60,495 nt of DNA from Candidatus Adlerbacteria bacterium RIFCSPHIGHO2_12_FULL_53_18 (GCA_001775475.1 MEWW01000016.1:1-60495), one strand, 5' to 3'. Shown: positions 3,484-31,338, counted from the stretch's first letter. Notes: generated by a model from the letters alone, not told the origin. A program made the numbers and translations.

Positions 3484-3653
3484 ACTTCTTGATGTCGCAA
3501 ATTCCAGTCGGATTTGCGAAAAAGAAAAAGGCCCATAATCAGGCCATGGAGTCGACCTCTGCGTAGGAGTTCTTGTATTAACGCCCCTCTGGGCTTCCTA
3601 CGGTCTTCGTGGCTCTGTAAGGGAAGACTATCGCGGGTGGGCAACGTTGTCAA
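3484..3653 (-). promoter_or_regulatory. rplJL promoter and ~135-nt structured 5' leader (candidate L10-leader-type autoregulatory RNA)
   Basis: Minus strand reads TTGACA (3648-3653), a 17-nt spacer, then TAGTCT (3625-3630). The leader has a GGCC/GGCC hairpin followed by CTTTTTCTTTTT (3519-3545). A second 8-bp hairpin TCGCAAAT/ATTTGCGA (3495-3519) sits just before the ATG. Confidence 0.45.
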
Positions 3654-3751
3654 TGTCTTTAATCCTTATATCTTACTCTCTCACTCCTGTGTACAAATGT
3701 ATAAAGAACAAAATAGTTTTAAAGATGCGACCGTCAACTTACGACTATTTT

Positions 3752-4309
3752 TTATAAGCCAAAGCGGCGCCTAAGAGGAGCATCAAATTCCATTTTGTCT
3801 ACCACCATATACAAAAGATCTTTCCCTACACGCAGGTCGATCTTAAAGTTTATGACGATGTCTTCGCAGTCATAGGGGTACACCTACACACTGTCCTGAA
3901 GTCGTGTGAACCCAAGCTGCAGTAATGTTCTGCGTATTTGAGCACGGGTTCCTCTGCGTCGTTCTGGTATATCAAAGATGAGCACGCGCCACTTACCGTC
4001 CCAGCGACGAGGTTTTTTGGGGGCCAGTTTCCCCTCTCCAATAAATGCCGCGTATGTTTCTCCATTAGGAGTTAGCCGTGCGCGGCCATCTTCGAGCACA
4101 ACATAGCCATGCTCGATAAGTTTAGTCAGGGATTTTTTAACAGCTTGTCTCCGCTGTGGAAGCAGGCCGGTTTTACCGAGAGCACCGAGCACGTTAGGTG
4201 CTAGTATCGCAACCGCAAGCCCGCCACTAACAGCCAGCGTACCAATAATGGCCGAATTAATGCGGGTTCGCCGTACTTTCTTTCGTACAGAGTCTTCAAT
4301 CTTACCCAT
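3752..4309 (-). pseudogene. PaaX-like / Cas2-fold wHTH protein interrupted by one in-frame TAG (at 3884-3886)
   Basis: The 141-aa ORF ends ...FTRLQDSV-TAG. The same frame then continues VYPYDCEDIVINFKIDLRVGKDLLYMVVDKMEFDAPLRRRFGL-TAA, with that stop at 3752-3754. The motif WDGKWRVLIFDIPE is typical of the PaaX C-terminal-like family. Confidence 0.6.
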
Positions 4310-4379
4310 ATCCTTACAATACTACCGTAGTTTTAATTTGACGGTCGTTTAGTTATGAATATCTCTGATATTTTGGCCA

Positions 4380-6621: not shown

Positions 6622-8658
6622 CTAGTTAGCGAAGATCGGGTCAGTGTCGTAGTCGTCGAGGTCGAACTCGTAGAGGCTCATAGTATCGTCGTCCTGAGTC
6701 GTGGAGAAGCCAATACCGACCAGGTGCAGGCTGTGGTAGCCGTCGCTGGCGGTGTCAACCGTGGCGTTAGAGCGGGTAACCGTGAGGGTGATGCGAGCAG
6801 ATTCGCCATCCTCAAAGGTGTACTCGTCTACGCCGTCGTCCGCAACCGTTCCGGACTGGTCAACTTTGGAGACCGCAGTCGAGAGAAGGGTTGTAGTAGC
6901 TGTACCATCAATCTCGTAGCGGAACACTTGGCCGCCGAGGTCAACGTCCGGTACTGACGCACCGCCATCGGCCACGTCAGTAGAGGAGGCCAAGTTGCCC
7001 ACGTATACCGTGCCGTCAAAGGCCGCGATGTCGTAGACAAGCTTGAGGGTTGCGGTATCGTCGTCATTCGTACCATCCGCACCCGCCACGACGCTTTCCT
7101 CAGCCGAGACGAAGGTGGCATTGATACCTACATCGTAGAAGGCAATCGGATCGCCAGTTGCAGTGCCGGTCTTGTCGGTACCGTCGGTAAGTGATTCACC
7201 GGTCTCATCCTCCGCGTCAAGTACGGCGCGGTTAGAGGTAGAGAAGGATGCCGTAAGTGCATCGCCTTCCACAAGGTTAGCGTCAGTGTCGTTGATGTCT
7301 GCCTTGACGATAACGGTCACCTTGTCGCCCTCGTCGATAGTTACATCGACATCGTCGAAGGTAACAGTTGCGCCAGAAGTACCGACAACTGCTGCGGAAC
7401 CAGCTTCTGACCACTCTGTACCGTCAACGTCGATGTAGACAGTGCTTGCAATATGAGCAAGCGTGGTTGCCGTACCACCAGATGAGGTTGCGAAGTTAAT
7501 CGGGATATCGCGGACACGGATATCGCCGCCTTCTGCCTCAAGGGTGAAGCGGAAGAGCTCAACGCCATCTGTGTTGCTGGTGCTGTGGATGTTAACCACA
7601 CCTTTAGGTGTGTCGTCGCTCGAAGCTGCCTTCAACTCAACATCATTTGCAGTTGCAAAGGTGTCGAAGGTGAAGTTGCGGCCAGTGGCATCGTTGATGT
7701 CACCGGTTGCGCTGTCGGTGACAGACGCACCCTGTGCATCGCGGAAGCGCACATTCTCGAACTCAATGTTCCAGACGTCGGTTGCATCAGTCGAGTCAAG
7801 GTTGTTGATACCAGAAACTGCGATAGTAAGGTCGCCTGTTTCGCCGGCTTCAATGATGCCGCCTGCATCGAGTGAAATCGTTCGGTCGAAGTTCTGGTCA
7901 TCGCGGAAGTCACTTGCATCTACGCGAGCAACTTCTTTGCCGTTGACCCAGACAGAAACCTCATCAGCATACTCGTCAAGGTCCTTGGTTCCAACGCCGC
8001 TGCCAGGAGAGAAGTTGAGGTTAACTGCCGTGAGCTCAATGTCAGAGCCGCTGTCAGCCTCGAGGTCGAGACCAGCGACTTCTACATCTTCTGCGCCCTC
8101 GCCAACTTGCTCATTGTTGAGGCCAGAGACGTAGTCAGCGTCGTTGATAGAGCCTGCGCCGCCCTGAAGAGTGGTCGGAGTGCTCGGTGTACCCGGAGTA
8201 CCCGGAGTACCAGGGGCTGCTGAAGTAGCCCATGCCTGCTGCGAGATAGGGCCAAAGTAGCCTACTGGCGGAACAATATTCTTAGAGGCCTGCCATGCTG
8301 CTACTGCTGCCCGAGTCTGGGTACCGAAGTAGCCAGTCGCACCTGCGGGGATCGAGAAACCCATGGAGATGAGGTTCTCTTGGAGGCAAGTTACTTGCGG
8401 GCCAGTTGCACCTATCGTCAAAGGACCGGTGAAGGTGCAGAGGCTTGTAGTAGAGCTGCCACCTGATACCAGTGCCTGAATTGCTGCCGCCTGAGAGCCG
8501 GTCAACCCAAGGACCTGGATGATGGTCGTAGCCTCAGCTTGGGTAAGCGCGTATGCCGGAGCCACAAAGCCGCCGAAGGCGACTGCGAGCACCAAACCTG
8601 CGCCAACCGCCAAAGCGACGATCCGGGAACTTTTTGTAATGCTAATAGTCATACACAA
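6622..8658 (-). CDS. secreted, very acidic cell-surface protein: signal peptide, peptidoglycan-binding-like domain, then D/T/G-rich beta-modules
   Basis: The signal peptide ends ...FVAPAYA. The segment GATGPQVTCLQENLISMGFSIPAGATGYFGTQTRAAVAAWQ resembles PG_binding_1. A PGTPGTPGTPSTP linker is followed by about 500 aa rich in D, T, G and V. Confidence 0.6.
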   Translation of the reverse strand: MCMTISITKSSRIVALAVGAGLVLAVAFGGFVAPAYALTQAEATTIIQVLGLTGSQAAAIQALVSGGSSTTSLCTFTGPLTIGATGPQVTCLQENLISMGFSIPAGATGYFGTQTRAAVAAWQASKNIVPPVGYFGPISQQAWATSAAPGTPGTPGTPSTPTTLQGGAGSINDADYVSGLNNEQVGEGAEDVEVAGLDLEADSGSDIELTAVNLNFSPGSGVGTKDLDEYADEVSVWVNGKEVARVDASDFRDDQNFDRTISLDAGGIIEAGETGDLTIAVSGINNLDSTDATDVWNIEFENVRFRDAQGASVTDSATGDINDATGRNFTFDTFATANDVELKAASSDDTPKGVVNIHSTSNTDGVELFRFTLEAEGGDIRVRDIPINFATSSGGTATTLAHIASTVYIDVDGTEWSEAGSAAVVGTSGATVTFDDVDVTIDEGDKVTVIVKADINDTDANLVEGDALTASFSTSNRAVLDAEDETGESLTDGTDKTGTATGDPIAFYDVGINATFVSAEESVVAGADGTNDDDTATLKLVYDIAAFDGTVYVGNLASSTDVADGGASVPDVDLGGQVFRYEIDGTATTTLLSTAVSKVDQSGTVADDGVDEYTFEDGESARITLTVTRSNATVDTASDGYHSLHLVGIGFSTTQDDDTMSLYEFDLDDYDTDPIFAN

Positions 8659-8997
8659 TAATTACTTTTAAACCTAAACTTGTAATCGCACCAAGTATGT
8701 CTACCTGCTCTCCCCATCCTTAGCCCTGTTGCCCCTTTATAAAAGGAGCGGACGAAATTACGGAGAGAACGTTGGTAGTAAGAGGGGATTAGGAGTGTCA
8801 GCGTTTGCAGCCGTGGTGGGACAAGGTCGTACTGCCAGTTTATTTGGTGAACCTGCTTATCTATCTAGTAGACGCCTTAAATGCCGCGCACTTACAGGCG
8901 TTCTTCATGCTCTATGTTGTATTAAATTGTCAATGAGCACTCAGTAAACAAACCCTGCGTCAACCCCGTGCAAGGCACGAGGCAGTCGCTAGCCACT

Positions 8998-9027
8998 ATT
9001 ATAGGCCCCATTTGCAAGAGCTGGCAA
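8998..9027 (-). promoter_or_regulatory. sigma70-type promoter ~330 nt upstream of the surface-protein gene
   Basis: Minus strand reads TTGCCA (9022-9027), an 18-nt spacer, then TATAAT (8998-9003). Confidence 0.5.
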
Positions 9028-9134
9028 AAAGGCCTGTGGACAAGCAACTAAGAGCCCTTTTCTGGGCTTTTACCTTTGTTCTGCCGCACAAGGCTAACCT
9101 ATCGCAGGTAGGGGGGTTGGTCAATGTCCCCCAG

Positions 9135-9851
9135 CTAGAGCGCGCGGTAGACGCTCCAGCGACGTTCACCTTCCCGCCTGATGACCCCCTGCTCTATAAG
9201 AGTATTAAGCTCGCGCTGGATGGTCTTCTCACTATAACCCTGCACCACCTTTGCTATGTCTTTAATGGAGACCCCGTTACTTTTCCTCACATAATCCAGA
9301 ATAAGGAGGGCCCTATTTTGTCCTTTAGAACTCTCAGAGTCCTTTTGTGTCTTATGTCCTTTAGAAATGTCCTTTAGACCTGCGGGGGCGCTCGCAAGGC
9401 TAAGAGGAGAGGGGAGTGGGGTAAATAATGGCTCGTCCTCTAGTGCCGGTACCGCAAGATCCTGTGGAGAAACACTAAGGCCCAGGTGTCTACTGTCGCC
9501 GACTAACCTATCGACTAACGCCTCATATTCTTCTACCAAAACCCTTGCGGTTTCTTTACTTATGTATCCCCGTGTGGCATGCAAGCGGAGGGTGGAAATA
9601 ATGGAAAAAAGGTCGGCAAGAAGCGTCTCTTCAACTATCTCCCCCGCCGATGCGTAGATAACATCCTGCATGACTTGCACTGCAAAATTAGCGGTTCCTT
9701 TTAGGGCTTCGGCTGAGTCAGAGACACTCCTCGCGGCGAGCACTGCCAGAACGTGAGCAAGTTTCTCAGTCTTGAGATAGCAGAAGTACCAGTTGCTGCG
9801 TCCTTTAAAAAGCTTTGAATGAAAGGCTATTTTCGTAAAATCCCTTTTCAT
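9135..9851 (-). CDS. DNA-binding protein with C-terminal winged-helix (DeoR-type HTH) and helical N-terminal domain
   Basis: The C-terminus reads RALLILDYVRKSNGVSIKDIAKVVQGYSEKTIQRELNTLIEQGVIRREGERRWSVY. The N-terminal function is unknown. Confidence 0.55.
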   Translation of the reverse strand: MKRDFTKIAFHSKLFKGRSNWYFCYLKTEKLAHVLAVLAARSVSDSAEALKGTANFAVQVMQDVIYASAGEIVEETLLADLFSIISTLRLHATRGYISKETARVLVEEYEALVDRLVGDSRHLGLSVSPQDLAVPALEDEPLFTPLPSPLSLASAPAGLKDISKGHKTQKDSESSKGQNRALLILDYVRKSNGVSIKDIAKVVQGYSEKTIQRELNTLIEQGVIRREGERRWSVYRAL

Positions 9852-9892
9852 GTCTTTTTTGTAATGTCTTTTAAAGTCTTTTACTGTCTTTT
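9852..9892. repeat. four phased GTCTTTT(A) direct repeats in a divergent promoter region
   Basis: GTCTTTT starts at 9852, 9866, 9876 and 9886, giving spacings of 14, 10 and 10 bp. Confidence 0.6.
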
Positions 9893-9992
9893 AAAAATTC
9901 CTATCCGCCATGTAGGACACTTGTCCGTTAGAGTACGCTCTCCTCTTAATCGATGCAAGCCTCTGTCCACATGCTATGATGTGTGGTGACTT

Positions 9993-12200
9993 ATGGCGCG
10001 TAAAAACGGTAAAAAAGACAAGGGGTTACTGAACAATCCTGTAAGCGCGCTTCCGGCAGAAACAAAACGAGGGGTGCTCGTGGTGGCCTTAGTAACTGTC
10101 GGGCTCTTTCTCCTGCTTGCGGCGTTTGGCGTAGCGGGCGAGGTAGGGGGAGAGGCTTATGCATTTTTCTACAACCTGCTGGGGGTAGGGTACTTCCTCC
10201 TTCCCCTTCTATTTTTTGTACTCGCCGGAAGCGCACTGCGGCCGGATGTAGCGACCTTTACTCCATTTAAAATACTCGCGAGCGTGGCGTTTATTGTGGC
10301 AGGCCTGGGGTTTATGTCGCTCGTGGGAAACGGCGGCGGGATTATCGGGGCACTCATTGCAGAGCCATTGGTGGAATTTTTTGACATCTACGTTGCCGTA
10401 CTGGCCTTGGGCGGCTTGGCGCTTATGTCGCTCCTCGTGCTCCTCGAAGGTGGCATTCCGGTCGCCACCTTTGGAGAAATCGGCCATGTGATATTGGCAC
10501 CGTTTCGCCTCTTTAAAAAGAAGGACCCCTTTGCAGAAACTGTCATCTCCGGCGCGGAACTCGAAGGGCCGGTTGAGCCCATGGCAGAAGATGAAGATGT
10601 GGTCATCGCCCCTCCGACTAAAGACGCCATCGGTAGCGGTGCTCGCCCTGAACAAACCGCAATCTCCTTGGCGCACTTGCTTGGCGAGTATACGCCGCCG
10701 CCACTCTCGCTCCTTGAGCGTGACAAGGGCCGCCCGGGCGTGGGCGACATCAAGGCAAACGCTAATATAATTAAGCGAACCTTGCAGAACTTCGGCATTG
10801 TCGTAGAGCTCGATGAGATCTCAATCGGGCCATCAGTCACGCGCTATGCGATTAAACCAGCCGAAGGCGTACGGCTGCAGAAGATAGTTGCGCTCCAGCA
10901 AAACTTGGCGCTCGCACTTGCGGCCAAAGGCGGCATCCGGATCGAAGCACCGATACCGGGGAAGTCGCTTGTCGGCATCGAGGTTCCGAACTCCGCCAAA
11001 GTGACCGTGGGGCTCGGCACCTTGCTTGAGACAAAAGAGTTTACGGAGACGCACAAACCGCTTTTTGTGGCACTTGGACGAGATATTGCTGGCGGCTCGC
11101 ACTTTAGCAATATCGCTAAAATGCCGCACATGCTTATCGCCGGAGCCACGGGCTCGGGAAAGTCGGTCGCCATACACACGATTATCACGAGTTTGCTGTA
11201 TCGTTGTGGGCCATCTCAACTGCGATTTATTTTTATAGACCCTAAGCGCGTCGAGCTGACGCTTTATCGGTCGCTGCCACACCTCCTAACACCGGTTATC
11301 ACCGACGCAAAGCGCGCAATCATGGCGCTACGCTGGGCGGGCAAAGAAATGGAGCGCCGTTATAATATTTTGGAAGAGGAGCGCGTGCGCGATGTTGAGT
11401 CGTATCACCAAAATGTGCTCGCGCCGGCACTTGAAAACTTGCGCAAGCGCGGCGGAAAGCCCGAAGAAGGAGAGCGTGTGCCCGAGGCAATGCCCTACAT
11501 CGTCATCGTCATAGACGAGCTTGCGGATATTATGCATACCTTTCCGCGCGAATTAGAAGCGGCGGTTGTGAGGCTCGCACAAATGAGCCGCGCTATAGGG
11601 ATCCATCTCGTGCTCTCGACCCAGCGGCCGAGCGTGAACGTCATTACCGGTCTCATCAAAGCCAACATCCCCACGCGCGTAGCATTGCAGGTCGCTTCGC
11701 AGATAGACTCGCGCACGATACTCGACCAAGGCGGCGCCGAAACGCTGCTTGGCGCAGGCGACATGCTCTACCTCTCGGCCGAGATGAACAAGCCGGTGCG
11801 CCTCCAGAGTGCGTTCATCAGCGAAGTGGAGGTAAAGAAAATTGTCGACTTTATCGCCAAGCACAACGAAGCGGAGCTGCCGATTGAGATAGGCGCGAGC
11901 AGTGCAGGAGAGGGGGGAAGTCCCTCCACTCCTCTCGCAACCGGTGGCAGCTTTGGTGACGAGGAGGAAATCGACGATGACATGTACGAAGCCGCGCGCG
12001 CAACGGTCCAAGAGGCAGGTAAGGCCTCAACCTCTTACATCCAAAGGAAGCTGCGGGTCGGCTATGCGCGCGCGGCGCGGCTTGTCGACATGCTCGAGGA
12101 GCGCGGCGTTGTCGGCCCCGCAGACGGCGCCAAGCCGCGCGAGATTTTGGACAAGGGTACCGCGCCGCCGCCTGTCGGTGAACCCGAGTCAACGCCATGA
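9993..12200 (+). CDS. ftsK: DNA translocase FtsK/SpoIIIE
   Basis: The N-terminus has TM helices. Motifs include Walker A GATGSGKS and VIVIDELADIM, and there is a C-terminal gamma wHTH domain (YIQRKLRVGYARAARLVDMLE). Confidence 0.95.
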   Translation: MARKNGKKDKGLLNNPVSALPAETKRGVLVVALVTVGLFLLLAAFGVAGEVGGEAYAFFYNLLGVGYFLLPLLFFVLAGSALRPDVATFTPFKILASVAFIVAGLGFMSLVGNGGGIIGALIAEPLVEFFDIYVAVLALGGLALMSLLVLLEGGIPVATFGEIGHVILAPFRLFKKKDPFAETVISGAELEGPVEPMAEDEDVVIAPPTKDAIGSGARPEQTAISLAHLLGEYTPPPLSLLERDKGRPGVGDIKANANIIKRTLQNFGIVVELDEISIGPSVTRYAIKPAEGVRLQKIVALQQNLALALAAKGGIRIEAPIPGKSLVGIEVPNSAKVTVGLGTLLETKEFTETHKPLFVALGRDIAGGSHFSNIAKMPHMLIAGATGSGKSVAIHTIITSLLYRCGPSQLRFIFIDPKRVELTLYRSLPHLLTPVITDAKRAIMALRWAGKEMERRYNILEEERVRDVESYHQNVLAPALENLRKRGGKPEEGERVPEAMPYIVIVIDELADIMHTFPRELEAAVVRLAQMSRAIGIHLVLSTQRPSVNVITGLIKANIPTRVALQVASQIDSRTILDQGGAETLLGAGDMLYLSAEMNKPVRLQSAFISEVEVKKIVDFIAKHNEAELPIEIGASSAGEGGSPSTPLATGGSFGDEEEIDDDMYEAARATVQEAGKASTSYIQRKLRVGYARAARLVDMLEERGVVGPADGAKPREILDKGTAPPPVGEPESTP

Positions 12201-15013: not shown

Positions 15014-15724
15014 ATGTATGCGCTTTTAGAAAGACCGGTAGTGCGAGGGACGCTTGCATGCTTGGTAGTTGTGTCGCTTCTGTTGGTGCCGATGCATCAG
15101 CCGGCGCAGGGGAAGCCCGTGATACAGGTTATCATTGTGGCAATTGGTTTCGGTCTGATAGGTGTCGGCGTCGCATGTCTGACGCAATGGCTCGATATCT
15201 GCAAGGATGGCGGAGGTAAGAAGGGCGGAGGCGGGGGTGGAAATAATGATGATGACAATGGGGATGGAGGGGGCGGGGGTGAAAATAATGATGACGACAA
15301 TGGGGATGGAGACGGGAACGGAAACAACGTCCCTATTCAATGCGGACTATCAAATATAAACGGGTGTGGCATGCAAGAGCCGCGTACTACATTCCCAGGC
15401 GTGGCTTGCGACCTCTCTCCTATACCAAACAGTCAGTGCCCTGTGCCGGTTATAGGCGAAGCGGACTTTTACGCAGACCCGGACCGCGTGAGGTCGGGAA
15501 ACACAACCCGCCTCTATTGGGAAGTATCTAATGCGACCGTGTGTTCTCTCACGGGCGGCGGTCTTAACCTCCTTTCACTCTTGGACGAAGGCGCGCAAGA
15601 AACTAACGACATAACGGCTGCCACGACCTTTACGCTTACTTGTTCAAACGGCTCTGCAGTCGACAGTCCCAAAGCTTCACAGCAAACAAACGTTACCCTT
15701 ATTCCGTCGTTCCAGGAAATTTAA
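15014..15724 (+). CDS. membrane-anchored protein with G/N/D low-complexity linker and C-terminal Ig-like domain
   Basis: TM helices are followed by the linker GGGGGNNDDDNGDGGGGGENNDDDNGDG. The C-terminal domain is Cys-containing and beta-rich (TTRLYWEVSNATVCSLTGGG...TFTLTCSN). Confidence 0.55.
   Translation: MYALLERPVVRGTLACLVVVSLLLVPMHQPAQGKPVIQVIIVAIGFGLIGVGVACLTQWLDICKDGGGKKGGGGGGNNDDDNGDGGGGGENNDDDNGDGDGNGNNVPIQCGLSNINGCGMQEPRTTFPGVACDLSPIPNSQCPVPVIGEADFYADPDRVRSGNTTRLYWEVSNATVCSLTGGGLNLLSLLDEGAQETNDITAATTFTLTCSNGSAVDSPKASQQTNVTLIPSFQEI
15231..15314 (+). repeat. two copies of a 42-bp in-frame tandem repeat
   Basis: GCGGGGGTGGAAATAATGATGATGACAATGGGGATGGAG and GCGGGGGTGAAAATAATGATGACGACAATGGGGATGGAG begin at 15231 and 15273. 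Confidence 0.8.
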
Positions 15725-22405: not shown

Positions 22406-23734
22406 CTACACTGTGATGCCGCTCTTCAGAAGCGCAGAAAGTTCGCTTACTTGGACCCGCTTTTGCTCCCCGCTGTCGCGGTCGCGAAGCGTGACGGTGT
22501 CTTTAAGTTCTGGCTTCTCTCCCAACGTGTCAAAGTCTACCGTGACGCACCAGGGGGTGCCTATTTCGTCCTGCCGGCGGTAGCGCTTCCCTATGTTGCC
22601 GTTGTCGTCCCACACGATCTGCGGGATTTCTTTTTTGAGATTCTGGTAGACCTCGCGCGCCTTCTCAACAAGCTCGGGCTTGTTTTTAAGGAGCGGAAAG
22701 ATAGCAGCTTTAACGGGTGCCAAATGGGGAGGAAATTTGAGATATACGCGCTTCTCTCCGCCTAACTCATCTTCGGTGTAAGCCTTAACGATGACCGCAA
22801 GCAAGTGTCTACCTAGCCCAAACGTGGGCTCAAGCACATGGGGTACTGTGCGCTCGTTAGTGTTGGGGTCGAGATACGAGAGGTCAGTGCCGCTGTGCGC
22901 AATGTGGTTGTTAAGGTCAAAGTCGGTGCGGTAGGCTAACCCTCCTATTTCGTCAAATTTGTGTGGGTAGTTAAAGTGAAAGTCTACTGTACGCTTGCTA
23001 TAGTGAGCCCTCTCCCCGTCTGGAATTTCTATCTCTTTAATATCCTCAGGTCCAAATCCCAGTTTTTTAAACCATTCCTGCATTTGCCCGCGCCAGTACT
23101 CAAACCTCTCCTCCCAATTTTTTTCCTCAATAAAATATTCAAACTCCATCAGATCAAACTCGCGCACACGGAATATAAAATCACGCGGCGCAATTTCATT
23201 ACGAAAGGTCTTTCCTATCTGTGCAATACCGAACGGGAGTTTGGGGTGGTAGGAGTCAATGATGTTTTTAAAGTTGACGAACATGCCCTGAGCATTCTCG
23301 GGACGCAAATAAACCGCCGTATCCGAGCCGTCAACTGAGCCGACAGATGTTTTAAACATCATATTGAACTGTCTCGGTTCACTAAGCTTCCCGCCGCACT
23401 CGGGGCACTTGGTAGTGTCCTCAAGATGATCTGCACGAAAGCGGTGCTTGCATTTACTGCACTCCACCAGCGGGTCGGCAAAACCCTGCACATGTCCGCT
23501 CGCCTCCCACACCTTAGGGTTCATTAAAATGGCCGAGTCGAGCCCATACATGTCGTCACGGCTCTCGACAAAAAACCGCCACCACAAATTTTCAATATTT
23601 TTCTTAAGTGCTACGCCTAAGTGCCCGTAGTCCCACGTGCCAGCCAGGCCGCCGTAAATCTCGGAGCCCTGAAACACAAACCCGCGTCGCTTACAGAGCG
23701 ACACTATCTTTTCCATCAATCCTTCTTCAGCCAT
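22406..23734 (-). CDS. glyQS: glycyl-tRNA synthetase (class II, dimeric type)
   Basis: Sequence CKRRGFVFQGSEIYGGLAGTWDYGHLGVALKKNI is typical. Class II motifs and a C-terminal anticodon-binding domain are present. Confidence 0.92.
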   Translation of the reverse strand: MAEEGLMEKIVSLCKRRGFVFQGSEIYGGLAGTWDYGHLGVALKKNIENLWWRFFVESRDDMYGLDSAILMNPKVWEASGHVQGFADPLVECSKCKHRFRADHLEDTTKCPECGGKLSEPRQFNMMFKTSVGSVDGSDTAVYLRPENAQGMFVNFKNIIDSYHPKLPFGIAQIGKTFRNEIAPRDFIFRVREFDLMEFEYFIEEKNWEERFEYWRGQMQEWFKKLGFGPEDIKEIEIPDGERAHYSKRTVDFHFNYPHKFDEIGGLAYRTDFDLNNHIAHSGTDLSYLDPNTNERTVPHVLEPTFGLGRHLLAVIVKAYTEDELGGEKRVYLKFPPHLAPVKAAIFPLLKNKPELVEKAREVYQNLKKEIPQIVWDDNGNIGKRYRRQDEIGTPWCVTVDFDTLGEKPELKDTVTLRDRDSGEQKRVQVSELSALLKSGITV

Positions 23735-23744
23735 AAGTGTTTAC

Positions 23745-23804
23745 TATAAGCTAGCGAGTGAGAGAAATAAAGCTTGTTTTATTTCCGAGCGAGCGACGCT
23801 TATA
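23745..23804 (-). promoter_or_regulatory. nested-hairpin element, copy upstream of glyQS
   Basis: The sense strand reads TATAAGC-GTCGCTCGCTCG-GAAATAAA-acaagc-TTTATTTC-TCTCACTCGCTA-GCTTATA. The 3' arm plus GT gives TATAGT, 8 nt before the ATG. Confidence 0.5.
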
Positions 23805-23818
23805 TCCTGCGAAGTAGG

Positions 23819-25780
23819 TTACTTAGGAGCCACAACGTCCACACCAGACTGCGTGTCGCCGATAAGCTTGGTGGTTGCCGCCCCGCCGGTGGCGCTCAAG
23901 TTTACGTTCGCAAAGCGGTCCTGGCCGGTAAGCTCGGGAGTACTGCTGAGTGCGGGAGACTGGCCTACCTGGCTCTCGCTCGGCAGTAATTCAACCTGAA
24001 AAGCTCCCGTGCGCGGGCTGCTTGTGTAGCCAGCGCCGGCTTTAATCTCGCCCAAAGACCAGGTAACCGTGCGGCTCCCTTCGTTGTAGGAAATGCCGCT
24101 CCCCGCCTCCGCAGCGACAAAGCGCACGTACGTCGGGAGCGTTGCCACGACCTGGCCGTTCCCTACGGCATTGGCAGAGTTGCGCACCGTCCAGCGCACC
24201 GTGTAGGTCGTCTCTTGCTCCGCCTGCGGCGGCATGGGGCCGGAGTTCGTGAATGGTCCTGAAAAATGGAGTACCTCTGTCGAGAGCGAGAGCGCGGAGG
24301 CTACCGTGACTTTTGTCGAAGCCGCGGAGAGTATGGTCTCCGGCTCTCCGGCTTCGCGCACGGCGCGCACGGTCAGGTTGAGGTCGATGGTGGGGTTGGT
24401 GATGAGCACACCGCCCTCGCCGGGAGAGCGCGTCAAAAACGAGAATTGAAAGGTCCCGTTTGCGCCAGAGGCAACCGACTCCAGTTCAGAATTGTCGTCC
24501 TTGCTCCACACCAGCGAGTTATTGACGGATTGGAAAAACGCTCCCTGCCCTTGTATAGAGTCTTCATCGAGGGAGGGCCCTGCGAGCGTCAAGGTTACCT
24601 CAACATCGGAGACGGAATCGGAGAGGTTATTTTGCCACGACACCGTGCCACTGATGCGCGAGCCGGCGGCGACAGCGATGTTGCTGCCGCTTTTGCCTTC
24701 GACCGTAATGTTGCCTGCGATAAATGGACGCTTCACCGTTAAGGTTTGCGGAATCGTAATGAACGGAAGTTTTACCTCCGGGTCGGTTGCGTCGTCGTTT
24801 GAACCTGCAATAAAGCGGAAGATGCGTTCGTCGCCGTCCTCCCCTTGAATTGTGCCCGTAACCCTGATGGATTTCGAAGCACCGGGGTCAAGCGTACCTA
24901 GCCGCCACATCCCGCTCGTATCTGCGGCAGGCTCCGTACGTATAACTGAGAAGCCGAACGGATACTCTCCCTTGACCACGAGGTCGGCGATGGGGGTTGT
25001 CGCATTGGAGCGCACGGTCAGGTCAAAAGTAAACGGCTGTCCCGCGACACTCTCACTTGGGCCCTCTATCGCAAGCGACACCGGGGCAGAGCCGATCGTT
25101 ATCGTAACTTCTTCCTGCCGGACAAAGACCGCATTTGAGCCCTGGACACTATACTCAAGCGCTACCTTAATGGTTTGCAGCTGTCCCTCTTCGCCGAAGA
25201 GAAGCGCTGAAGCGGTGCGTTTGAGTTCTTGGCCTGACTCAATAGTTCCTACCGAGAGGCGGTCATGCAAGAGGTCAGTGCTGGGATTGTTAGGGTTGCG
25301 GGTACCGTCGGGGTAATCGATAACGAGGTCGGCGAGGAGAAGCGGCGTGGTGTTTCTGTTGCGTACGACGATCTCCACCTGCACCTCTTTGCCGCCGTCG
25401 ACGAGCGTTGGCACGACGAGCTCCAGGTCGATATTGCGCGGCGAGGTAGTGTTCACTCCGCCCAAAAAGACAAAGCTCGCGACTGCGATTGCAGCGGTAA
25501 AAAATATGATCGATCCTCCAAGAAATTTGAATGCAAATGACATGTGTGAGTGGCTCTCGGACGGCAGTGCGGGGGACGTGACCGGTGGACGCATCGGCGT
25601 GGTAGGTGGCGCAGGATCTGCGGCGTCGGGAGAAGGCTTCTGGGCTTCCCAGGTTTTTGGTGCGCTCGCCTCGCTGGGGGTAAGCGCCGTACGCTCTTCT
25701 TTCTTGATTTGTTTTATCCCTTCCCGCGCGTAGAGACGGTTTTTGAGCTTTTCCACCCCGCTCTTTTCCTCGCGAGTCAT
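23819..25780 (-). CDS. large single-pass membrane protein with Pro-rich N-terminus and beta-rich extracytoplasmic repeats
   Basis: The N-terminus is charged and Pro-rich, followed by a TM helix (FLGGSIIFFTAAIAVASFVFLGG). About 540 aa of beta-sandwich-like sequence follow. I recognise no catalytic motif. Confidence 0.5.
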   Translation of the reverse strand: MTREEKSGVEKLKNRLYAREGIKQIKKEERTALTPSEASAPKTWEAQKPSPDAADPAPPTTPMRPPVTSPALPSESHSHMSFAFKFLGGSIIFFTAAIAVASFVFLGGVNTTSPRNIDLELVVPTLVDGGKEVQVEIVVRNRNTTPLLLADLVIDYPDGTRNPNNPSTDLLHDRLSVGTIESGQELKRTASALLFGEEGQLQTIKVALEYSVQGSNAVFVRQEEVTITIGSAPVSLAIEGPSESVAGQPFTFDLTVRSNATTPIADLVVKGEYPFGFSVIRTEPAADTSGMWRLGTLDPGASKSIRVTGTIQGEDGDERIFRFIAGSNDDATDPEVKLPFITIPQTLTVKRPFIAGNITVEGKSGSNIAVAAGSRISGTVSWQNNLSDSVSDVEVTLTLAGPSLDEDSIQGQGAFFQSVNNSLVWSKDDNSELESVASGANGTFQFSFLTRSPGEGGVLITNPTIDLNLTVRAVREAGEPETILSAASTKVTVASALSLSTEVLHFSGPFTNSGPMPPQAEQETTYTVRWTVRNSANAVGNGQVVATLPTYVRFVAAEAGSGISYNEGSRTVTWSLGEIKAGAGYTSSPRTGAFQVELLPSESQVGQSPALSSTPELTGQDRFANVNLSATGGAATTKLIGDTQSGVDVVAPK

Positions 25781-26375: not shown

Positions 26376-29300
26376 TTACTCTTCGCTAATAGTCAGAGAC
26401 TCAAGGCCAGTTTCTTTCAGAATTTCATTCCGGTATTTTTCTGCAATCTCTTTTTCTTCGCCGGCAACGTTGAGCGTGTAGGAAGGTCGGTCGGCAATGG
26501 TGAGCCCCTCTTCTTTGCGCCACTCCTGCACGCGGCGTATCAACGTGCGCACTACACCCTCCTCCTGCAGCTCCGGCGTTAATGTTGCATCGAGCCATGC
26601 GTCCCCATCGATCGAACTGTCTTCAACTACTTCTTTGACATTGAGCTCGTCGGCAACAAGCGCTACGAGTCCGTGGTCAGCGGGCAGCTTGCGTACTTTA
26701 AGCACAAAGAGCGGTTGGCGGACTTTGATTCCCGCCTCTTCGCGGAGCTTCAACCCCTGCGAGGCAAGCGAGCGCACCACCGCCATGTCACTGAGGAGGG
26801 CTTCGTCTGTTGCATACGGCGCAGGCCACGACTCCAGATGCACACTCTCCTTCTCTGCGCCAAGTCCTTGGTAGATGCTCTCTGCGACAAAAGGTGTCAC
26901 GGGCGCCATGAGACACGAGAGCGTGTAGAGCACCTCGCGCTGGGTCGCCAGTGCAAACTTCTTGTCCGTAATGTCCTCGCCGCGAGCGCGGTCACGCGAG
27001 CGGCGCACATACCAGGTTGAGTAGTCTTCAACGAAGCTGCGCAGCGCTCGCACCGCAGTCGGTGTATCGTACGCATCCATTGCTTCAGTAACGGTCTTGG
27101 TTGTTTTGCCGAGGAGCGAAAGCACCCAGCGGTCGAGCACATGTGGGCTGTCCTCCGCCTTGACACTCTTGTCCCACTCACTCTTATAAAGCTCGAAAAA
27201 CTTGTACGAGTTCCAGAGGATGCCTATGGTGCGGTTATGCGCCTCGCGCACGTCTTCGTCTCTAAAGTTAATGTCCTCGCCGCTCATCACGACAGAACCC
27301 ATAAGGTAGAGTCGGAGCGCGTCGGCGCCGAACTGATCCATAACCTGCAAGGGATCAGTATAGTTGCCTTTACTCTTGCTCATCTTGGCACCGTCAGCGG
27401 CAAGGATGGTGCCGGTCGATACCACGCTGCGAAACGACTGCTGGTTAGAAAGAAGAACGCCCATTGCATGCATGTAGTAAAACCACGTGCGGGTCTGGGC
27501 GATATACTCGGCGATAAAGTGTGCGGGGAAGCCTTTGGGCCACAGACCCCAGAGGCGCCCTGGGTTAAATACTTCTTTGTTCTCAAACGGGTAGTGGTTA
27601 GAAGCATAGGGCATAGTGCCAGACTCAACCCAGCAGTCGACAACCTCCGGAATGCGCTCGTACCCCCTGCCCTTGCTGTCAACGAGCGTCACCGCGTCGA
27701 TGTAGGGGCGGTGCAGGTCGAGTCCGTAGTCTTTGTTGTGGGGAAAAGGGGTAAACGAGAGCTTCCGTACTTCAGAGGTCTTGAGCATATACTCTTTTGA
27801 AAAGTCGTTGGATGGGCGGCGTGCCGCCACCTGTTGTAGCACCCATAGCGGATTGCCGTGAGAGATAATGAGAATCCGCTTGCCCGTGTAGCGTCGCTCG
27901 ATTTCAAAGATAAATTCCCCTATGCGCCGGCGCACTTCTATGTGTGCAGTCTCACTCGCCTCGCGCAGACGTTCGTCTACCATGACAGCACTCTCCGGAA
28001 GTCTTAATTCTTTTTGCACTAAAGCGGCGGTTTCTCGCGTACGCAAAAACGGTGAAGTTACAATGAGGTCTATACTCCCGCGCTTGAGTCCGACCGTCGC
28101 CACATGTATTGCGTCTGTTCTTCCTTTTTCAGTAACATGGTTGGCAGGGTCGCCCGTAGGGTCATCAACACCCTCTACATTGTGCCCGGCCTCCGCATGC
28201 CTCATTACAAAGTAGGTATTGCCGGACTTTTTTGTTTTCTCAAGCAGTTCTTTAAGCGAGCCTATAACCATGAGCCTGCTGCCTCCTTTCTCCTTCCAGA
28301 TTGGTAAGGCTGACGCCCAAAATCGATTTCGGGAGATTGTCCAGTCCGGCGCATTCTCGACAATGTGCTTAAAGCGGCCGTGTTTTAGGTGGGCAGGGAC
28401 CCAGTTCACCCGCTCGTTTTGAGCAAGCATGCTTTTTTTCACTTTCTGGATATTTATAAACCACGAGGGTACGGCACTGTAGATAAGCGCCGTACCGCAA
28501 CGGTAGCAGTGCGGGTAGGAGTGCGTATGGTTTTCTTTTTTAAACAGGAGCCCCTGCTCCTCAAGATGCGCTTTGATAACCTTTTCTGCCTTTTTGTAGT
28601 ATTCACCGCGGATAAACTCTGGCGCGGCGTCATTGTACGTGCCGTTGGCGTTTAAGAGTTGGATCATAGGAAGACCCTCTTTCTGACCCAAGGCATAGTC
28701 ATCTTCTCCATACATGACAGCTGTGTGCACGATGCCGGTACCTTCGTCTGTATTCACAAAATCAGCCGCGTACACTTTGTAGGATTTCATTCCGTGGAGA
28801 GCGGGTACGTCAAACAAGGGCTCGTAGCTCATGCCGACAAGCTGCGCGCCTTTTACGCTGCCGGGGCCCGCTTTAATAAAGTGTTCGCCGTCTTTCTCGA
28901 TGAGCTGATAGTCGATATCTTTTCCCACCGCAAGCGCTATGTTGCCCGGCAGCGTCCACGGTGTTGTGGTCCAGGCCAGAAGATAGGTGCGCTCGGGGAG
29001 GTTATACCGAAGCGGATTTTTGATCTTGAACTTCACTGTGACCGCCTCTTCGGTAATATCTTTGTAGGTGTTGTCCATTGCGATCTCGGCTTTCGCAAGC
29101 GGCGTCTCGCAGTGCGGGCAGTACATGAGGACTTTCCGGCCCTCGTAGAGCATTTTCTTGCCGTGGAGTTTTTTGAGCGCCCACCATACCGACTCCATGT
29201 ACGAGTTGTCCATGGTTTTGTAGGAGTTTTTAAAGTCCACAAACCGACCGATGCGGTCGATGTATTTTTCCCACTCGTGTTCAAACTCCATCACACTTGC

Positions 29301-29657
29301 GCGCGCGGCTTCGTTAAACGTGTCGATACCTATACTCAAAATATCTTTTTTGGTTTTGAGGTTGAGGCGTTTCTCTATCAAGCTCTCAATCGGCAAGCCG
29401 TGGCAGTCCCAGCCCCACCGCCGCGGCACGCGGTACCCCTGCATCGTTTTGTAACGCGGGATGACGTCTTTGATTACGGAAGAAAGGAGAGATCCGTGGT
29501 GCGGGAGGCCGGTTGCAAAAGGTGGTCCATCATAGAAGATAAACTCTCCCTTAGGCGCCCACTTACGGAGCGTCTTTTCAAAAATCTGGTTCTCCTTCCA
29601 AAACTCAACTACCCCTTCCTCGCGCTTGGCTGTCTCACTTTTACCCTTATCGGACAT
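26376..29657 (-). CDS. ileS: isoleucyl-tRNA synthetase (type 2-like) with nested histidine-phosphatase domain
   Basis: IleRS motifs FYDGPPFATGLPHHG, WTISRNRFW, DCWVESGTMPYA and KMSKSKGN are present. The insert at about aa 480-642 carries RHAE, SPFLRTRETA and ISHG motifs. Confidence 0.92.
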   Translation of the reverse strand: MSDKGKSETAKREEGVVEFWKENQIFEKTLRKWAPKGEFIFYDGPPFATGLPHHGSLLSSVIKDVIPRYKTMQGYRVPRRWGWDCHGLPIESLIEKRLNLKTKKDILSIGIDTFNEAARASVMEFEHEWEKYIDRIGRFVDFKNSYKTMDNSYMESVWWALKKLHGKKMLYEGRKVLMYCPHCETPLAKAEIAMDNTYKDITEEAVTVKFKIKNPLRYNLPERTYLLAWTTTPWTLPGNIALAVGKDIDYQLIEKDGEHFIKAGPGSVKGAQLVGMSYEPLFDVPALHGMKSYKVYAADFVNTDEGTGIVHTAVMYGEDDYALGQKEGLPMIQLLNANGTYNDAAPEFIRGEYYKKAEKVIKAHLEEQGLLFKKENHTHSYPHCYRCGTALIYSAVPSWFINIQKVKKSMLAQNERVNWVPAHLKHGRFKHIVENAPDWTISRNRFWASALPIWKEKGGSRLMVIGSLKELLEKTKKSGNTYFVMRHAEAGHNVEGVDDPTGDPANHVTEKGRTDAIHVATVGLKRGSIDLIVTSPFLRTRETAALVQKELRLPESAVMVDERLREASETAHIEVRRRIGEFIFEIERRYTGKRILIISHGNPLWVLQQVAARRPSNDFSKEYMLKTSEVRKLSFTPFPHNKDYGLDLHRPYIDAVTLVDSKGRGYERIPEVVDCWVESGTMPYASNHYPFENKEVFNPGRLWGLWPKGFPAHFIAEYIAQTRTWFYYMHAMGVLLSNQQSFRSVVSTGTILAADGAKMSKSKGNYTDPLQVMDQFGADALRLYLMGSVVMSGEDINFRDEDVREAHNRTIGILWNSYKFFELYKSEWDKSVKAEDSPHVLDRWVLSLLGKTTKTVTEAMDAYDTPTAVRALRSFVEDYSTWYVRRSRDRARGEDITDKKFALATQREVLYTLSCLMAPVTPFVAESIYQGLGAEKESVHLESWPAPYATDEALLSDMAVVRSLASQGLKLREEAGIKVRQPLFVLKVRKLPADHGLVALVADELNVKEVVEDSSIDGDAWLDATLTPELQEEGVVRTLIRRVQEWRKEEGLTIADRPSYTLNVAGEEKEIAEKYRNEILKETGLESLTISEE

Positions 29658-29667
29658 ATTGACAAAC

Positions 29668-29730
29668 TATAGTCGAGCGAGCGAGAGAAGTAAAATCTTT
29701 ATTTTAACTTCCGAGCGAGCGATGACTATA
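29668..29730 (-). promoter_or_regulatory. nested-hairpin element, copy upstream of ileS
   Basis: The sense strand reads TATAGTC-ATCGCTCGCTCG-GAAGTTAAAAT-aaag-ATTTTACTTC-TCTCGCTCGCTC-GACTATA. TATAGT sits 8 nt before the ATG. Confidence 0.5.
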
Positions 29731-29763
29731 TAGACGAAGTCTCTATAGCACTTTCAACGCTTT

Positions 29764-31338
29764 TTACATCTTTTCGGGCGCAGGGATGCCGAGCGCCGAT
29801 AGGCCTTTTTGGAGCGTTTTTTCTACTGCTTGTGCGAGGAGTGTGCCGTACTTGGGAGCACTGCCACCAATAACGCGCTCGCTTGCGTACCAGCTGTTAA
29901 AAGCCGAGGCGAGTTCTGTGAGGTAAGTCGTAACGTAGTGCGGCTCGAGTTCCTTCGCGGCCCGTTCAACTACGTCAGGGTAGTGAAGGAGAAGCCGCTC
30001 AAGAGTGTTCGCGTTTGCCGGCGCGTCACTTTGATCAGCTTTGATACCTACTTTCTCCGCTTCACGCAGTAATGAAAGCGCCCGAGTGTGGGCATACTGC
30101 ACATACGGCCCCGAGTCCCCTTCAAGCGAAAGTGACTTTTCCGGATCAAAGATAATATCTTTGCCGCTTCCCTGTTTTAATACCGCATATTTAATTGCCC
30201 CAACAGCCACGTCTTGCCGGTCCCGCGCGGCTTTTTGTAAATCGTCAAGCAATGCCTCACCAGTAATTATATTTCCTTTACGCGAGGACATTTTACCGGT
30301 TGTGAGCTTTAAGAATCCGTGGAATCGTCCAAGCATTTTGCCTTCAAGATCAGGAAAAATCTTTTCCGCTGCAGCACGGACCACCTTAAAATAATCTTGT
30401 ATTTCATTTGCGGTTACAGTGAGCGAAATATCGAAATCTCCTTTCTGCTTTTTTGCTTCGACCAACCCAAGCTCTTTTGCTTCGTACGTTGGGAGGCCAA
30501 GCGAGTTTATAAACACGCGTGTGTGGAGACCGTATTGCTCGCCGCGAAACACAATTGCCCCCTCACTTTCTTCAAAAACTTCACTGTGCTCCTTAATAAG
30601 CTTTAATCCTATGGGGCCCGTTTCGCTCTCAAAAAAGTAGTGAGCGAATTTGGTGCCGAGCACAGCATAGATCTCTTCAAAATGTTCAAGCGATTGTGCG
30701 CGGCCCTCGTCGTACAACTTGTTAATTATCTCGTCGCTTTTCTCATAAATCTTCTTATTTATTGCATCAATTTTCTCCTTATTGGCCTCGTATTCGTTGT
30801 TGCCATATACATACGCGTCCCCCCATGAAAGCCCTGGTTTTTGCAGCTTAGCCCAAATGGCTTTCGCAACGTGTACGCCCACATCTCCTTGGTAGTTGGC
30901 GCGCACAACTTCTGCTCCTGACATATCAAGCACACGAGCTATGGCCTCGCCTATCGCGTTGCTCATGAGGTGGCCGATGTGGAACTCTTTAAACGGATTC
31001 GGGTCAGTATACTCGACCATTATCTTCTTGCCTTTGTACAAATCGTTTGTGCCCCACCTCTCTTCTCTGGCTGCGGCCTCAACCTCTTTTGCAATCGCTT
31101 CGCGCGAGAGGAAAAAATTTATGAACTTCCCCACTACTTCAACCTTTTCTACCCCATCTATTTTGAGTTTCTCCGCAAGCTCATTGGGGTCCACTTTGGC
31201 CACAAGCGCGGCATTCGTTGAGTAATCGCCATGCGCCATCGAGCGCGGCCGCTCTACTACAAAAGTGGCCCCTCCTGCCCCAAGTGCCTTCAGCGCGGCT
31301 TCTACCGCCGCTTCTATACTGCCTCTTACCATACGCAT
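29764..31338 (-). CDS. argS: arginyl-tRNA synthetase
   Basis: The motif FKEFHIGHLMSNAIGEAI (HIGH) is present. The DALR anticodon-binding C-terminus ends ...PEKM. A possible alternative start is M3 at 31332. Confidence 0.9.
   Translation of the reverse strand: MRMVRGSIEAAVEAALKALGAGGATFVVERPRSMAHGDYSTNAALVAKVDPNELAEKLKIDGVEKVEVVGKFINFFLSREAIAKEVEAAAREERWGTNDLYKGKKIMVEYTDPNPFKEFHIGHLMSNAIGEAIARVLDMSGAEVVRANYQGDVGVHVAKAIWAKLQKPGLSWGDAYVYGNNEYEANKEKIDAINKKIYEKSDEIINKLYDEGRAQSLEHFEEIYAVLGTKFAHYFFESETGPIGLKLIKEHSEVFEESEGAIVFRGEQYGLHTRVFINSLGLPTYEAKELGLVEAKKQKGDFDISLTVTANEIQDYFKVVRAAAEKIFPDLEGKMLGRFHGFLKLTTGKMSSRKGNIITGEALLDDLQKAARDRQDVAVGAIKYAVLKQGSGKDIIFDPEKSLSLEGDSGPYVQYAHTRALSLLREAEKVGIKADQSDAPANANTLERLLLHYPDVVERAAKELEPHYVTTYLTELASAFNSWYASERVIGGSAPKYGTLLAQAVEKTLQKGLSALGIPAPEKM

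Follow-up and report, generated by a model that had tools for sequence, protein, structure and literature searches.

A small palindromic repeat upstream of ileS and glyS in a Candidatus Adlerbacteria genome, probably mobile and of widespread yet patchy occurrence in Patescibacteria

Genomes of Patescibacteria (CPR, for candidate phyla radiation) are tiny and usually described as poor in mobile DNA. Among the small repeats of bacteria, the repetitive extragenic palindromic (REP) sequences and REPINs, which RAYT (HUH Y1) transposases mobilise, are extragenic imperfect palindromes with a conserved GTAG head and form inverted REP doublets. [quoted passage not shown] Rickettsia palindromic elements (RPEs) are small palindromic repeats in the reduced genomes of host-dependent bacteria, located between genes as well as in frame within housekeeping genes, where they are translated, and have no associated transposase (PMC10969869). 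The stretch MEWW01000016.1:1-60495 of Candidatus Adlerbacteria bacterium RIFCSPHIGHO2_12_FULL_53_18 (60,495 nt, hereafter the window) is bacterial, has a G+C content of approximately 52%, and its nearest relatives carry the label Candidatus Adlerbacteria. It contains two nested hairpins of approximately 70 nt each on the minus strand, upstream of ileS and glyS. Both are probably copies of a small mobile palindromic repeat of Patescibacteria, non-coding and non-autonomous, of the MITE/REP/RPE kind and approximately 70-95 bp long.

Close relatives differ by gain and loss of copies of this element at exactly defined sites. The copies lie at the borders of genes, in both orientations, and can be carried in frame inside genes and amplify within a genome; they often have short direct repeats of the flanking sequence on either side. 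An earlier note on this DNA had described the pair and read it as a structured RNA or a protein-bound DNA site, possibly a regulator specific for aminoacyl-tRNA synthetase (aaRS) genes. The observation is confirmed and the aaRS-regulator reading is not supported, so that the interpretation given there is, as a whole, partly supported.

Each copy begins and ends with an arm of a variable outer stem (P1); between the arms lie, in this order, a (GCTC)n strand, the hairpin P2, which varies, and another strand that is (GCTC)n-like. Read on the minus strand from argS to ileS, copy 1 is TGCTATAG-AGACTTCG-TCTATATAGTC-A-TCGCTCGCTCGG-AAGTTAAAAT-AAAG-ATTTTACTT-CTCTCGCTCGCTC-GACTATAG-TTTGTCAAT-ATG. The parts of both copies are located as follows.

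29667-29750, minus: copy 1, whole insertion with flanking direct repeats (match to covariance model R1 at 29664-29734, 72.4 bits)
29764-29766 and 29655-29657, minus: neighbours of copy 1, the argS stop codon and the ileS ATG
29743-29750, minus: copy 1, left direct repeat T1, TGCTATAG (comparison with locus L119)
29729-29747, minus: copy 1, upstream hairpin P0, TATAGA-GACTTCG-TCTATA
29724-29730, minus: copy 1, 5' arm of P1, TATAGTC
29711-29722, minus: copy 1, conserved strand TCGCTCGCTCGG, with the complement CC GAGC GAGC GA
29686-29712, minus: copy 1, inner hairpin P2, GGAAGTTAAAAT-AAAG-ATTTTACTTCT (folding and covariation)
29675-29685, minus: copy 1, second conserved strand CTCGCTCGCTC
29668-29674, minus: copy 1, 3' arm of P1, GACTATA
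23739-23825, minus: copy 2, whole insertion with direct repeats (R1 match at 23741-23808, 70.0 bits)
23818-23825 and 23739-23746, minus: copy 2, direct repeats T1, TAAGTAAC, and T2, TAGTAAAC
23819-23821 and 23732-23734: neighbours of copy 2, the stop codon of a DUF11 gene and the glyS ATG
23798-23804, minus: copy 2, 5' arm of the outer stem, TATAAGC
23785-23796, minus: copy 2, conserved strand TCGCTCGCTCGG
23763-23786, minus: copy 2, inner hairpin P2, GGAAATAAA-ACAAGC-TTTATTTCT
23752-23762, minus: copy 2, second conserved strand CTCACTCGCTA
23745-23751, minus: copy 2, 3' arm of the outer stem, GCTTATA, overlapping a -10-like TATAGT (23743-23748)

Several of these parts overlap. The 3' arm of P0 and the 5' arm of P1 share two nucleotides in copy 1 (29729-29730), and the 3' arm of P1 overlaps both the right direct repeat T2 (CTATAG, 29667-29672) and a -10-like TATAGT (29666-29671). 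A hairpin with an ACTTCG loop like P0 also precedes many copies outside the window. Both sequences read on the minus strand as first described, and their coordinates were verified. Alignment and folds reproduce the two differences between the outer stems, each compensated on both arms, and the compensated pair of the inner stem is a change from G:C to A:T. The statement that the two pyrimidine-rich strands cannot pair holds in part: CG steps can pair in register, and folding predicts two to three isolated pairs. The window has no third copy by pattern search or by model R1 with its filters switched off.

Syntenic contigs of relatives with approximately 86% identical GlyRS (designated, like the other loci, by L and a number) share the gene order SHMT-DUF2914-argS-ileS-recO-DUF11-glyS-AI2E-metG-tatD-rpsF-ssb-rpsR. 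Identity of IleRS is 78% between the window and L199 and 75% between the window and L201. Along this order four sites (ileS, glyS, rpsF-ssb and the metG N-terminus) are polymorphic, each filled in one or two of approximately six syntenic genomes. At glyS only the window carries a copy, and the site is empty in L199, L201, L202, L204 and L205; the empty site of L204 is gaagTAGTAAAACtgacacgtATG, where this locus reads TAGTAAAAC...ATG, and copy 2 of the window is flanked by TAAGTAAC on the left and TAGTAAAC on the right, a direct repeat of approximately 8 nt. At ileS the site is filled in the window and in L201 and empty in L119 and L202. The L201 copy has the same outer arms as that of the window and differs by five loop substitutions and an indel. 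No copy was present in 80 metagenomic loci of IleRS relatives (44-87% identity, 428 kb). L119, the closest IleRS relative among them, has at its empty ileS site aaaaTGCTATAGTTTTGCAATATG, which is an extended -10 box situated 8 nt before the ATG; the window reads here aaagTGCTATAG-insertion-CTATAGTTTGTCAATATG. This comparison identifies copy 1 as an insertion at the extended -10 box of ileS with CTATAG as direct repeat, and T1 of copy 1 as the remnant of that box (TGnTATAGT), now separated from ileS. Between rpsF and ssb a copy lies exactly at the gene junction in L202 only, and the window and L199 have spacers of 5-6 nt. L199 encodes at the position of copy 1, between argS and ileS, an open reading frame (ORF) of 113 amino acids without a Pfam match (3598-3939), and the R1 search found no copy in its 21-kb locus. 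The distribution of the copies across these loci is patchy and does not follow clades. The tRNA-Arg/Val neighbourhood of L029 was also compared with the window as a filled and empty pair and was rejected, being too divergent for alignment. L201 has an additional insertion of approximately 3 kb (8301-11437) between glyS and the gene for the AI-2E transporter, two genes that lie side by side in the window, in L199 and in L202; it contains an rve integrase fragment, bAvd and an RVT_1 reverse transcriptase and looks like a diversity-generating retroelement cassette.

Copies are also carried within genes. The metG gene of L201 has an antisense copy in frame after codon 4, which adds approximately 22 residues. 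In truB of L036 an antisense copy lies in frame at residues 126-149 (EFIYKSSERRVNLFTLPSERRKYV) and splits the Pfam TruB_N match into two stretches; there the protein has 53 residues where the solved TruB of T. maritima (1ze1) has nine, i.e. 44 extra amino acids. The same gene has a second insertion of approximately 49 amino acids relative to T. maritima TruB (L036 5819-5929, residues approximately 228-276). This one is made of another palindrome, whose inverted repeats, CGATTTTGTCCCGATT and AATCGGGACAAAATCG, are perfect over 16 nt; hence more than one palindromic family invades ORFs in this metagenome-assembled genome (MAG).

Amplification within a genome is evident in MAG JBDRCM01, which contains at least 22 near-identical copies of a unit of approximately 215 bp that includes the core and has 14-bp terminal inverted repeats, TTGATAAATTATGG and CCATAATTTATCAA; these units are often located at contig ends. 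A second repeat family of this MAG consists of identical sequences of approximately 140 nt with a core copy (GCGCTCGCTCGG variant), which stand inverted at both ends of L018, a 5.3-kb contig (1-140 and 5189-5328); L008 7021-7091 was recorded with them. L018 was considered as an autonomous partner of the element and rejected, since it encodes holA, an M23 peptidase and an H+-pyrophosphatase. At L111 (approximately 2140-2292) two tandem copies share the arms ATGTTGCC / GGCAA, and the upstream one is degenerate (5' strand GCGTTTGCTCG).

The wider family was collected with the pattern TCGCTCGCTCGGAA-N(10-34)-TTCTCTC, searched against one genome per species. More than 118 stretches matched; among those listed, 111 loci reach an R1 score of at least 45 bits, and seven are chance matches. 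With 72.4 and 70.0 bits for the window copies against 14 bits for the third-ranked match in the window, and this exact 14+7-nt pattern so frequent in public genomes, the chance origin that the earlier note had left as an alternative is ruled out. Among the matches listed, the supported loci come by hand count from roughly 65 assemblies, mostly Patescibacteria MAGs, with labels including Adler-, Kaiser-, Moran-, Magasanik-, Falkow-, Berkel-, Sung- and Nomurabacteria, Paceibacterota and Saccharibacteria; a few element-bearing bins carry non-CPR labels. Up to three copies occur within 8 kb (L043). A full-length copy with GC-rich stems (55 bits) lies at L045 1490-1558 on the minus strand, flanked by a 14-nt direct repeat, GCTCGCTCAGACGT, on a contig of 64% G+C; as a neighbouring protein has Marmoricola and Nocardioides homologues, the contig is genuinely actinobacterial, and the copy may represent a cross-phylum transfer. 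Viral contigs gave no match, and a phage origin was rejected on this ground. Rfam has no family at gathering threshold over the window, and at E <= 10 the region gave nothing beyond chance-level snoRNA matches. In the papers searched the exact DNA and RNA strings were not found, none of the top-ranked ones joins MITE or REP terms with CPR terms, and a 2026 preprint on intergenic features has nothing that bears on the element. The family is thus apparently undescribed in the Rfam and literature sources searched; its distribution in Patescibacteria is widespread yet patchy.

In an alignment of 87 non-redundant copies 89.1% of the stem cells are paired, versus approximately 50% with partners slid, and the covariation score is 0.406 versus approximately 0.08 in the slid controls, with none of 500 shuffles reaching the observed value. 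The existence of a conserved, covarying nested-hairpin family, as first proposed from two copies, is borne out by these values. Pairs at the outer-arm columns 9/84 are AU 30, GC 23 and UA 21, and those at columns 10/83 are UA 48, GC 15 and CG 12. The strands between the two helices are nearly invariant, which is partly built in, because the search pattern prescribed TTCTCTC as well as the 5' strand. The complement of both strands is (GAGC)2-3 (in copy 1 also GAGC GAGC GAGA), and the two strands repeat each other directly, in one and the same orientation.

The two strongly covarying helices speak for a cis-regulatory structured 5'-leader RNA, whose outer stem would hide the downstream RNA start, with P0 as anti-sequestrator, and which would tune translation-related genes such as those of aaRS. 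The competition of P0 and P1 for the same nucleotides agrees with this, as do the 15 of 87 copies with the ATG inside the 3' arm, which gives U·G at that column, the TTGACA-17-TATTAT consensus promoter of L015, which would transcribe the element as a leader of tRNA-Gln, and the sense orientation of both window copies upstream of aaRS genes. The base pairs give it no support. Outside columns 5/88, 6/87 and 23/68 there are 17 G·U and 41 A·C, i.e. no G·U excess, and the G·U pairs are concentrated at columns with a fixed ATG or TTG/TAA motif. The asymmetry of G·U and A·C, used as a test for RNA, gave nothing in its favour, and strong stem covariation is for this reason no proof of an RNA role. Fold stability on either strand is unremarkable, near that of shuffles (z -0.9 to -2.6). 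Between the orthologous copies of the window and L201, five of approximately 25 'conserved' loop positions already differ; the 'conserved' strands diverge as fast as elsewhere, and the consensus is not kept by local purifying selection. Together with the gene contexts, the filled and empty sites, the copies inside genes and the burst in JBDRCM01, these observations indicate that the consensus is upheld by the spread of active copies and not by local selection on an RNA.

Gene context weighs further against a leader RNA. Fifty-nine genes have their start within 120 nt of a copy; they comprise 67 Pfam families and only three aaRS genes, and the others include genes for S1, SecY, CTP synthase, UvrD, Obg, ribosomal proteins, a pilin and M23 peptidases. 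Of the two copies that border on tRNA genes, one is in sense and one in the opposite orientation. Approximate counts of the flanking-gene contexts are 31 same/same, 18 opposite/opposite, 13 divergent and 11 convergent. Antisense, convergent and in-ORF copies are thus part of the family, and the orthologous leaders of close relatives lack the element and have short spacers instead (AAGGA-type at glyS). The covariance-model search and tabulation of following genes put forward in the earlier note therefore gave no aaRS association, and neither the aaRS-specific regulator, with copies in both orientations and empty orthologous sites, nor the reading as RNA of a 5' untranslated region is supported by these contexts. 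The condition named there for a MITE-like repeat describes what was found, namely many copies irrespective of gene context and with flanking duplications. A T-box had been declared absent, in agreement with the Rfam result, and the candidacy of a T-box or other known RNA family was dropped on it. Taken together, we judge a leader RNA to be very improbable.

The DNA strand itself shows no preference. Relative to local GC skew, which is only a proxy for the replication strand, 48 loci have a G-rich top strand and 40 a C-rich one (p = 0.46). This absence of strand bias, the two tetranucleotide arrays in the same orientation that are near-identical across lineages, and their complement GAGC GAGC, the minimal Rep-binding motif of adeno-associated virus (AAV) (PMC2900306), would each suit a chromosomal binding site on duplex (GAGC)n arrays for a conserved host protein, e.g. 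a nucleoid, replication or segregation factor, with a cellular and not a selfish function. Such a site would need no covarying stems, however, and copies are missing from the 428 kb mentioned above and from several 20-kb syntenic loci of related CPR genomes. Presence and absence from site to site, copies within ORFs and the burst of identical copies in one MAG likewise count against it, and it has very little probability in our estimate. That the element is a DNA site recognised by a protein is still a plausible part of what the earlier note had proposed, and it is also part of the mobile repeat that we favour.

Promoter-like sequences occur at both window copies. The previously suggested TTGAAA-17-TCTATA promoter of ileS is present as sequence (29757-29729), with a second hexamer that lacks the A2 and T6 required by the promoter scan. 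The scan lists instead TTTACT-17-TATAGT at 29694-29666. Many window genes have a TGnTAnnnT box 6-8 nt before the ATG and no Shine-Dalgarno sequence, which suggests that leaderless mRNAs are widespread in this organism; extended -10-like boxes are found, for example, at the gene starts 18999, 22396, 25780, 33059, 14488 and 37781. Of the two copies of the ileS box that flank the insertion, the upstream one is TGCTATAGA, with the final T lost, and the gene-proximal box has kept TATAGT and lost TG, with TTTACT supplied 17 nt upstream by the hairpin arm. At glyS the AAGGA-type spacer of the relatives is lost and TATAGT stands 8 nt upstream. Copy 1 would accordingly have inserted into or beside the extended -10 box of ileS as a leaderless gene, and copy 2 would have replaced a short Shine-Dalgarno spacer before glyS. 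The element may thus influence the expression of both genes as a by-product of its insertion.

A stronger form of this idea is a mobile expression module that spreads and persists where leaderless genes obtain a promoter from it, where it acts as a terminator or insulator between genes, or both, the 3' arm of the hairpin being the -35, the GCTC strand the spacer of 17-18 nt and the 3' arm of the outer stem the -10 hexamer. The scan result at 29694-29666 accords with such a module, and so do the position of TATAGT, whose end is 8 nt from the ATG at each of the window copies, the distance reported earlier, and 7 nt from it in L201, the many window genes with a box and no Shine-Dalgarno sequence together with the spacer lost at glyS, and the TAnnnT-type hexamer in the 3' arm of 57 of 92 copies. 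Across the family the promoter likeness is weak, however: nine of 12 matches to the sigma-70 consensus are reached by only 5 of 92 copies, and -35-like hexamers are poor. Approximately 15 copies have the ATG inside the arm, with no room for a -10 box, and others lie between convergent genes or inside ORFs. The TATAGT of ileS derives from the target, since L119 has the box and no element, which also counts against the module. A general mobile promoter was rejected for its weak consensus matches, and the module in its broader form appears unlikely.

The flanks of the copies carry direct repeats of variable length. They measure 6 nt at copy 1 (CTATAG), 8 nt with two mismatches at copy 2 (TA(A)GTAA(A)C), approximately 4-5 nt in L202 and 13-15 nt in L015, L053 and L060; for most copies none is above shuffle level. 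P0 stands before most copies and shares nucleotides of its 3' arm with the 5' arm of P1. Some copies show a further regularity: a segment of 8-15 nt just downstream of the element (initial codons, or the first 8 nt of a tRNA) is found again immediately upstream and, in inverted form, makes up the left arm (T-T'-core-T). The mirrored repeat of L015, GCATCGC|TCCCGGAT, consists of 7 nt of leader and 8 nt of tRNA-Gln; that of L053 is ATAGGGCCGACTGCG; L060 has GCTTATAGAAATG upstream and GCTTATGAAAATG downstream, start codon included; and L035, L080 and L113 have repeats of the type CAATAAGCC. This inverted segment is not the same at different sites and so cannot belong to what the element carries. 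The mirrored arms may have arisen when the target was duplicated and the template then switched within the quasi-palindrome, or from a guide-like choice of the target. Part of the 'compensatory' variation of the outer stem may consequently be mechanistic. Taken further, the arms would not be borne by the element at all: every insertion would copy them anew from the target, or the left arm would guide the choice of target. Insertion would then be target-templated or guide-directed, by a mechanism not yet described, and a Rep/HUH-like protein might drive it, given that the constant part has two (GAGC)n arrays like a Rep-binding element. We put this forward as a rather doubtful proposal; if true, such insertion would be active across CPR lineages and in at least one actinobacterium.

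For the mobile palindromic repeat, we envisage a putative trans-acting protein, not encoded in the window, that would recognise the two repeat arrays and the palindromes and mobilise the unit. Stem complementarity would be kept because the substrate must fold, or through arm-to-arm correction by template switching; either explains the complementarity, and selection on RNA structure is then not needed. Several points weigh against this reading. No gene for a transposase, integrase, HUH or other mobilising protein is present in the window, where all genes are housekeeping genes, or on L018. The outer arms do not form terminal inverted repeats of conserved sequence, and the flanking direct repeats range from 4 to 15 nt; neither would fit a classical DDE-type MITE. 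A single-strand mechanism like that of IS200/IS605 is disfavoured, since its strand bias was sought and not found. The near-identity of the repeat strands across very distant lineages would also fit a conserved host function. Copies that abut a gene start within 45 nt are more often sense (approximately 27) than antisense (approximately 12), and the gene calls in the fetched loci come from a crude longest-ORF heuristic, so that the orientation counts are approximate.

A structured mini-repeat family that crosses lineages and inserts between or inside essential genes (ileS, glyS, ssb, metG and truB) would mark recent genome flux and horizontal exchange in CPR. Such repeats also break assemblies and lead to wrongly annotated gene starts. 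For the discovery of RNA motifs it calls for caution, as a DNA palindrome can give strong stem covariation together with conserved loops. For the window itself, a candidate aaRS regulator is removed. Some Saccharibacteria are now genetically manipulable (PMC10633639), and the mobilising activity and the arms that mirror the flank could now be studied with them.

Three further features of the window were recorded. The IleRS encoded downstream of copy 1 (26376-29657, minus, 1093 aa) contains a His_Phos_1 domain (PF00300, residues approximately 483-567); this histidine-phosphatase domain separates the two halves of the class I catalytic domain and is also annotated in L199, L201, L202 and L205. 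A 42-nt tandem repeat (two copies, 90% identical, 15224-15307, plus strand) lies inside an ORF without a Pfam match (15014-15724) and encodes a Gly/Asn/Asp-rich stretch. An inverted repeat pair of 35 nt, 71% complementary (3713-3747 and 4328-4362), brackets a small PaaX-like gene (3884-4309).

Three comparisons with described systems touch single traits of the element. The position directly upstream of aaRS genes in the window recalls T-box and other aaRS leader RNAs, whereas the element has no T-box sequence, specifier loop or terminator and no family-wide association with aaRS. A boxA/boxB (nut-like) antitermination site, considered because of CGCUC before a hairpin, was rejected, as the U-rich AACAA part is absent and the contexts do not fit. 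TIGR-Tas arrays (tandem interspaced guide RNA) were rejected because the copies are solitary, have no box C/D motifs and contain variable segments that pair with each other (criteria in PMC12045711).

The closest likeness in behaviour is to the RPEs, which insert in frame into unrelated genes as the element does into truB of L036 and metG of L201. RPEs are approximately 100-150 bp long, specific for Rickettsia, and their family sequences encode conserved peptides. The element, in contrast, measures approximately 70-95 bp, its stems vary from copy to copy, only its two GCTC-repeat strands are conserved, and it occurs in many CPR lineages and on one actinobacterial contig; the two are likened by behaviour and description, not by sequence. 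Prokaryotic MITEs resemble it in being short, non-coding, multi-copy and dispersed, and the unit of JBDRCM01 with 14-bp terminal inverted repeats contains the core. Unlike in MITEs, the terminal arms conserve complementarity only, fixed terminal inverted repeats of 14 bp being confined to the JBDRCM01 unit, and the flanking repeats vary between 4 and 15 nt. REP/BIME, REPIN-RAYT and the IS200/IS605-derived PATE are likewise short imperfect palindromes at gene ends, known by structure and a few bases and presumably mobilised in trans; no RAYT or TnpA was seen in the sequence examined. The element differs from REP and REPIN in lacking the GTAG head, in having direct instead of inverted conserved strands and in its in-ORF copies, and from PATE of the IS200/IS605 type in its balanced strand distribution (48:40). 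The Rep-binding element of the AAV inverted terminal repeat, of which GAGC GAGC is the minimal site (PMC2900306), and rolling-circle replicon origins composed of iterons and a hairpin share the arrangement of GAGC arrays by a hairpin within a larger palindrome, whereas no Rep or HUH gene, nick site or conserved loop was identified here and the hairpin loops of the element vary. The resemblance to the AAV site concerns motif and layout only and may serve as a lead to the mobilising protein, not as a classification. From MITEs, REP elements and RPEs the element differs in its arms, which vary and yet remain complementary, in the direct-repeat strands inside a palindrome, in flanking repeats of variable length and in its phylum-level spread.

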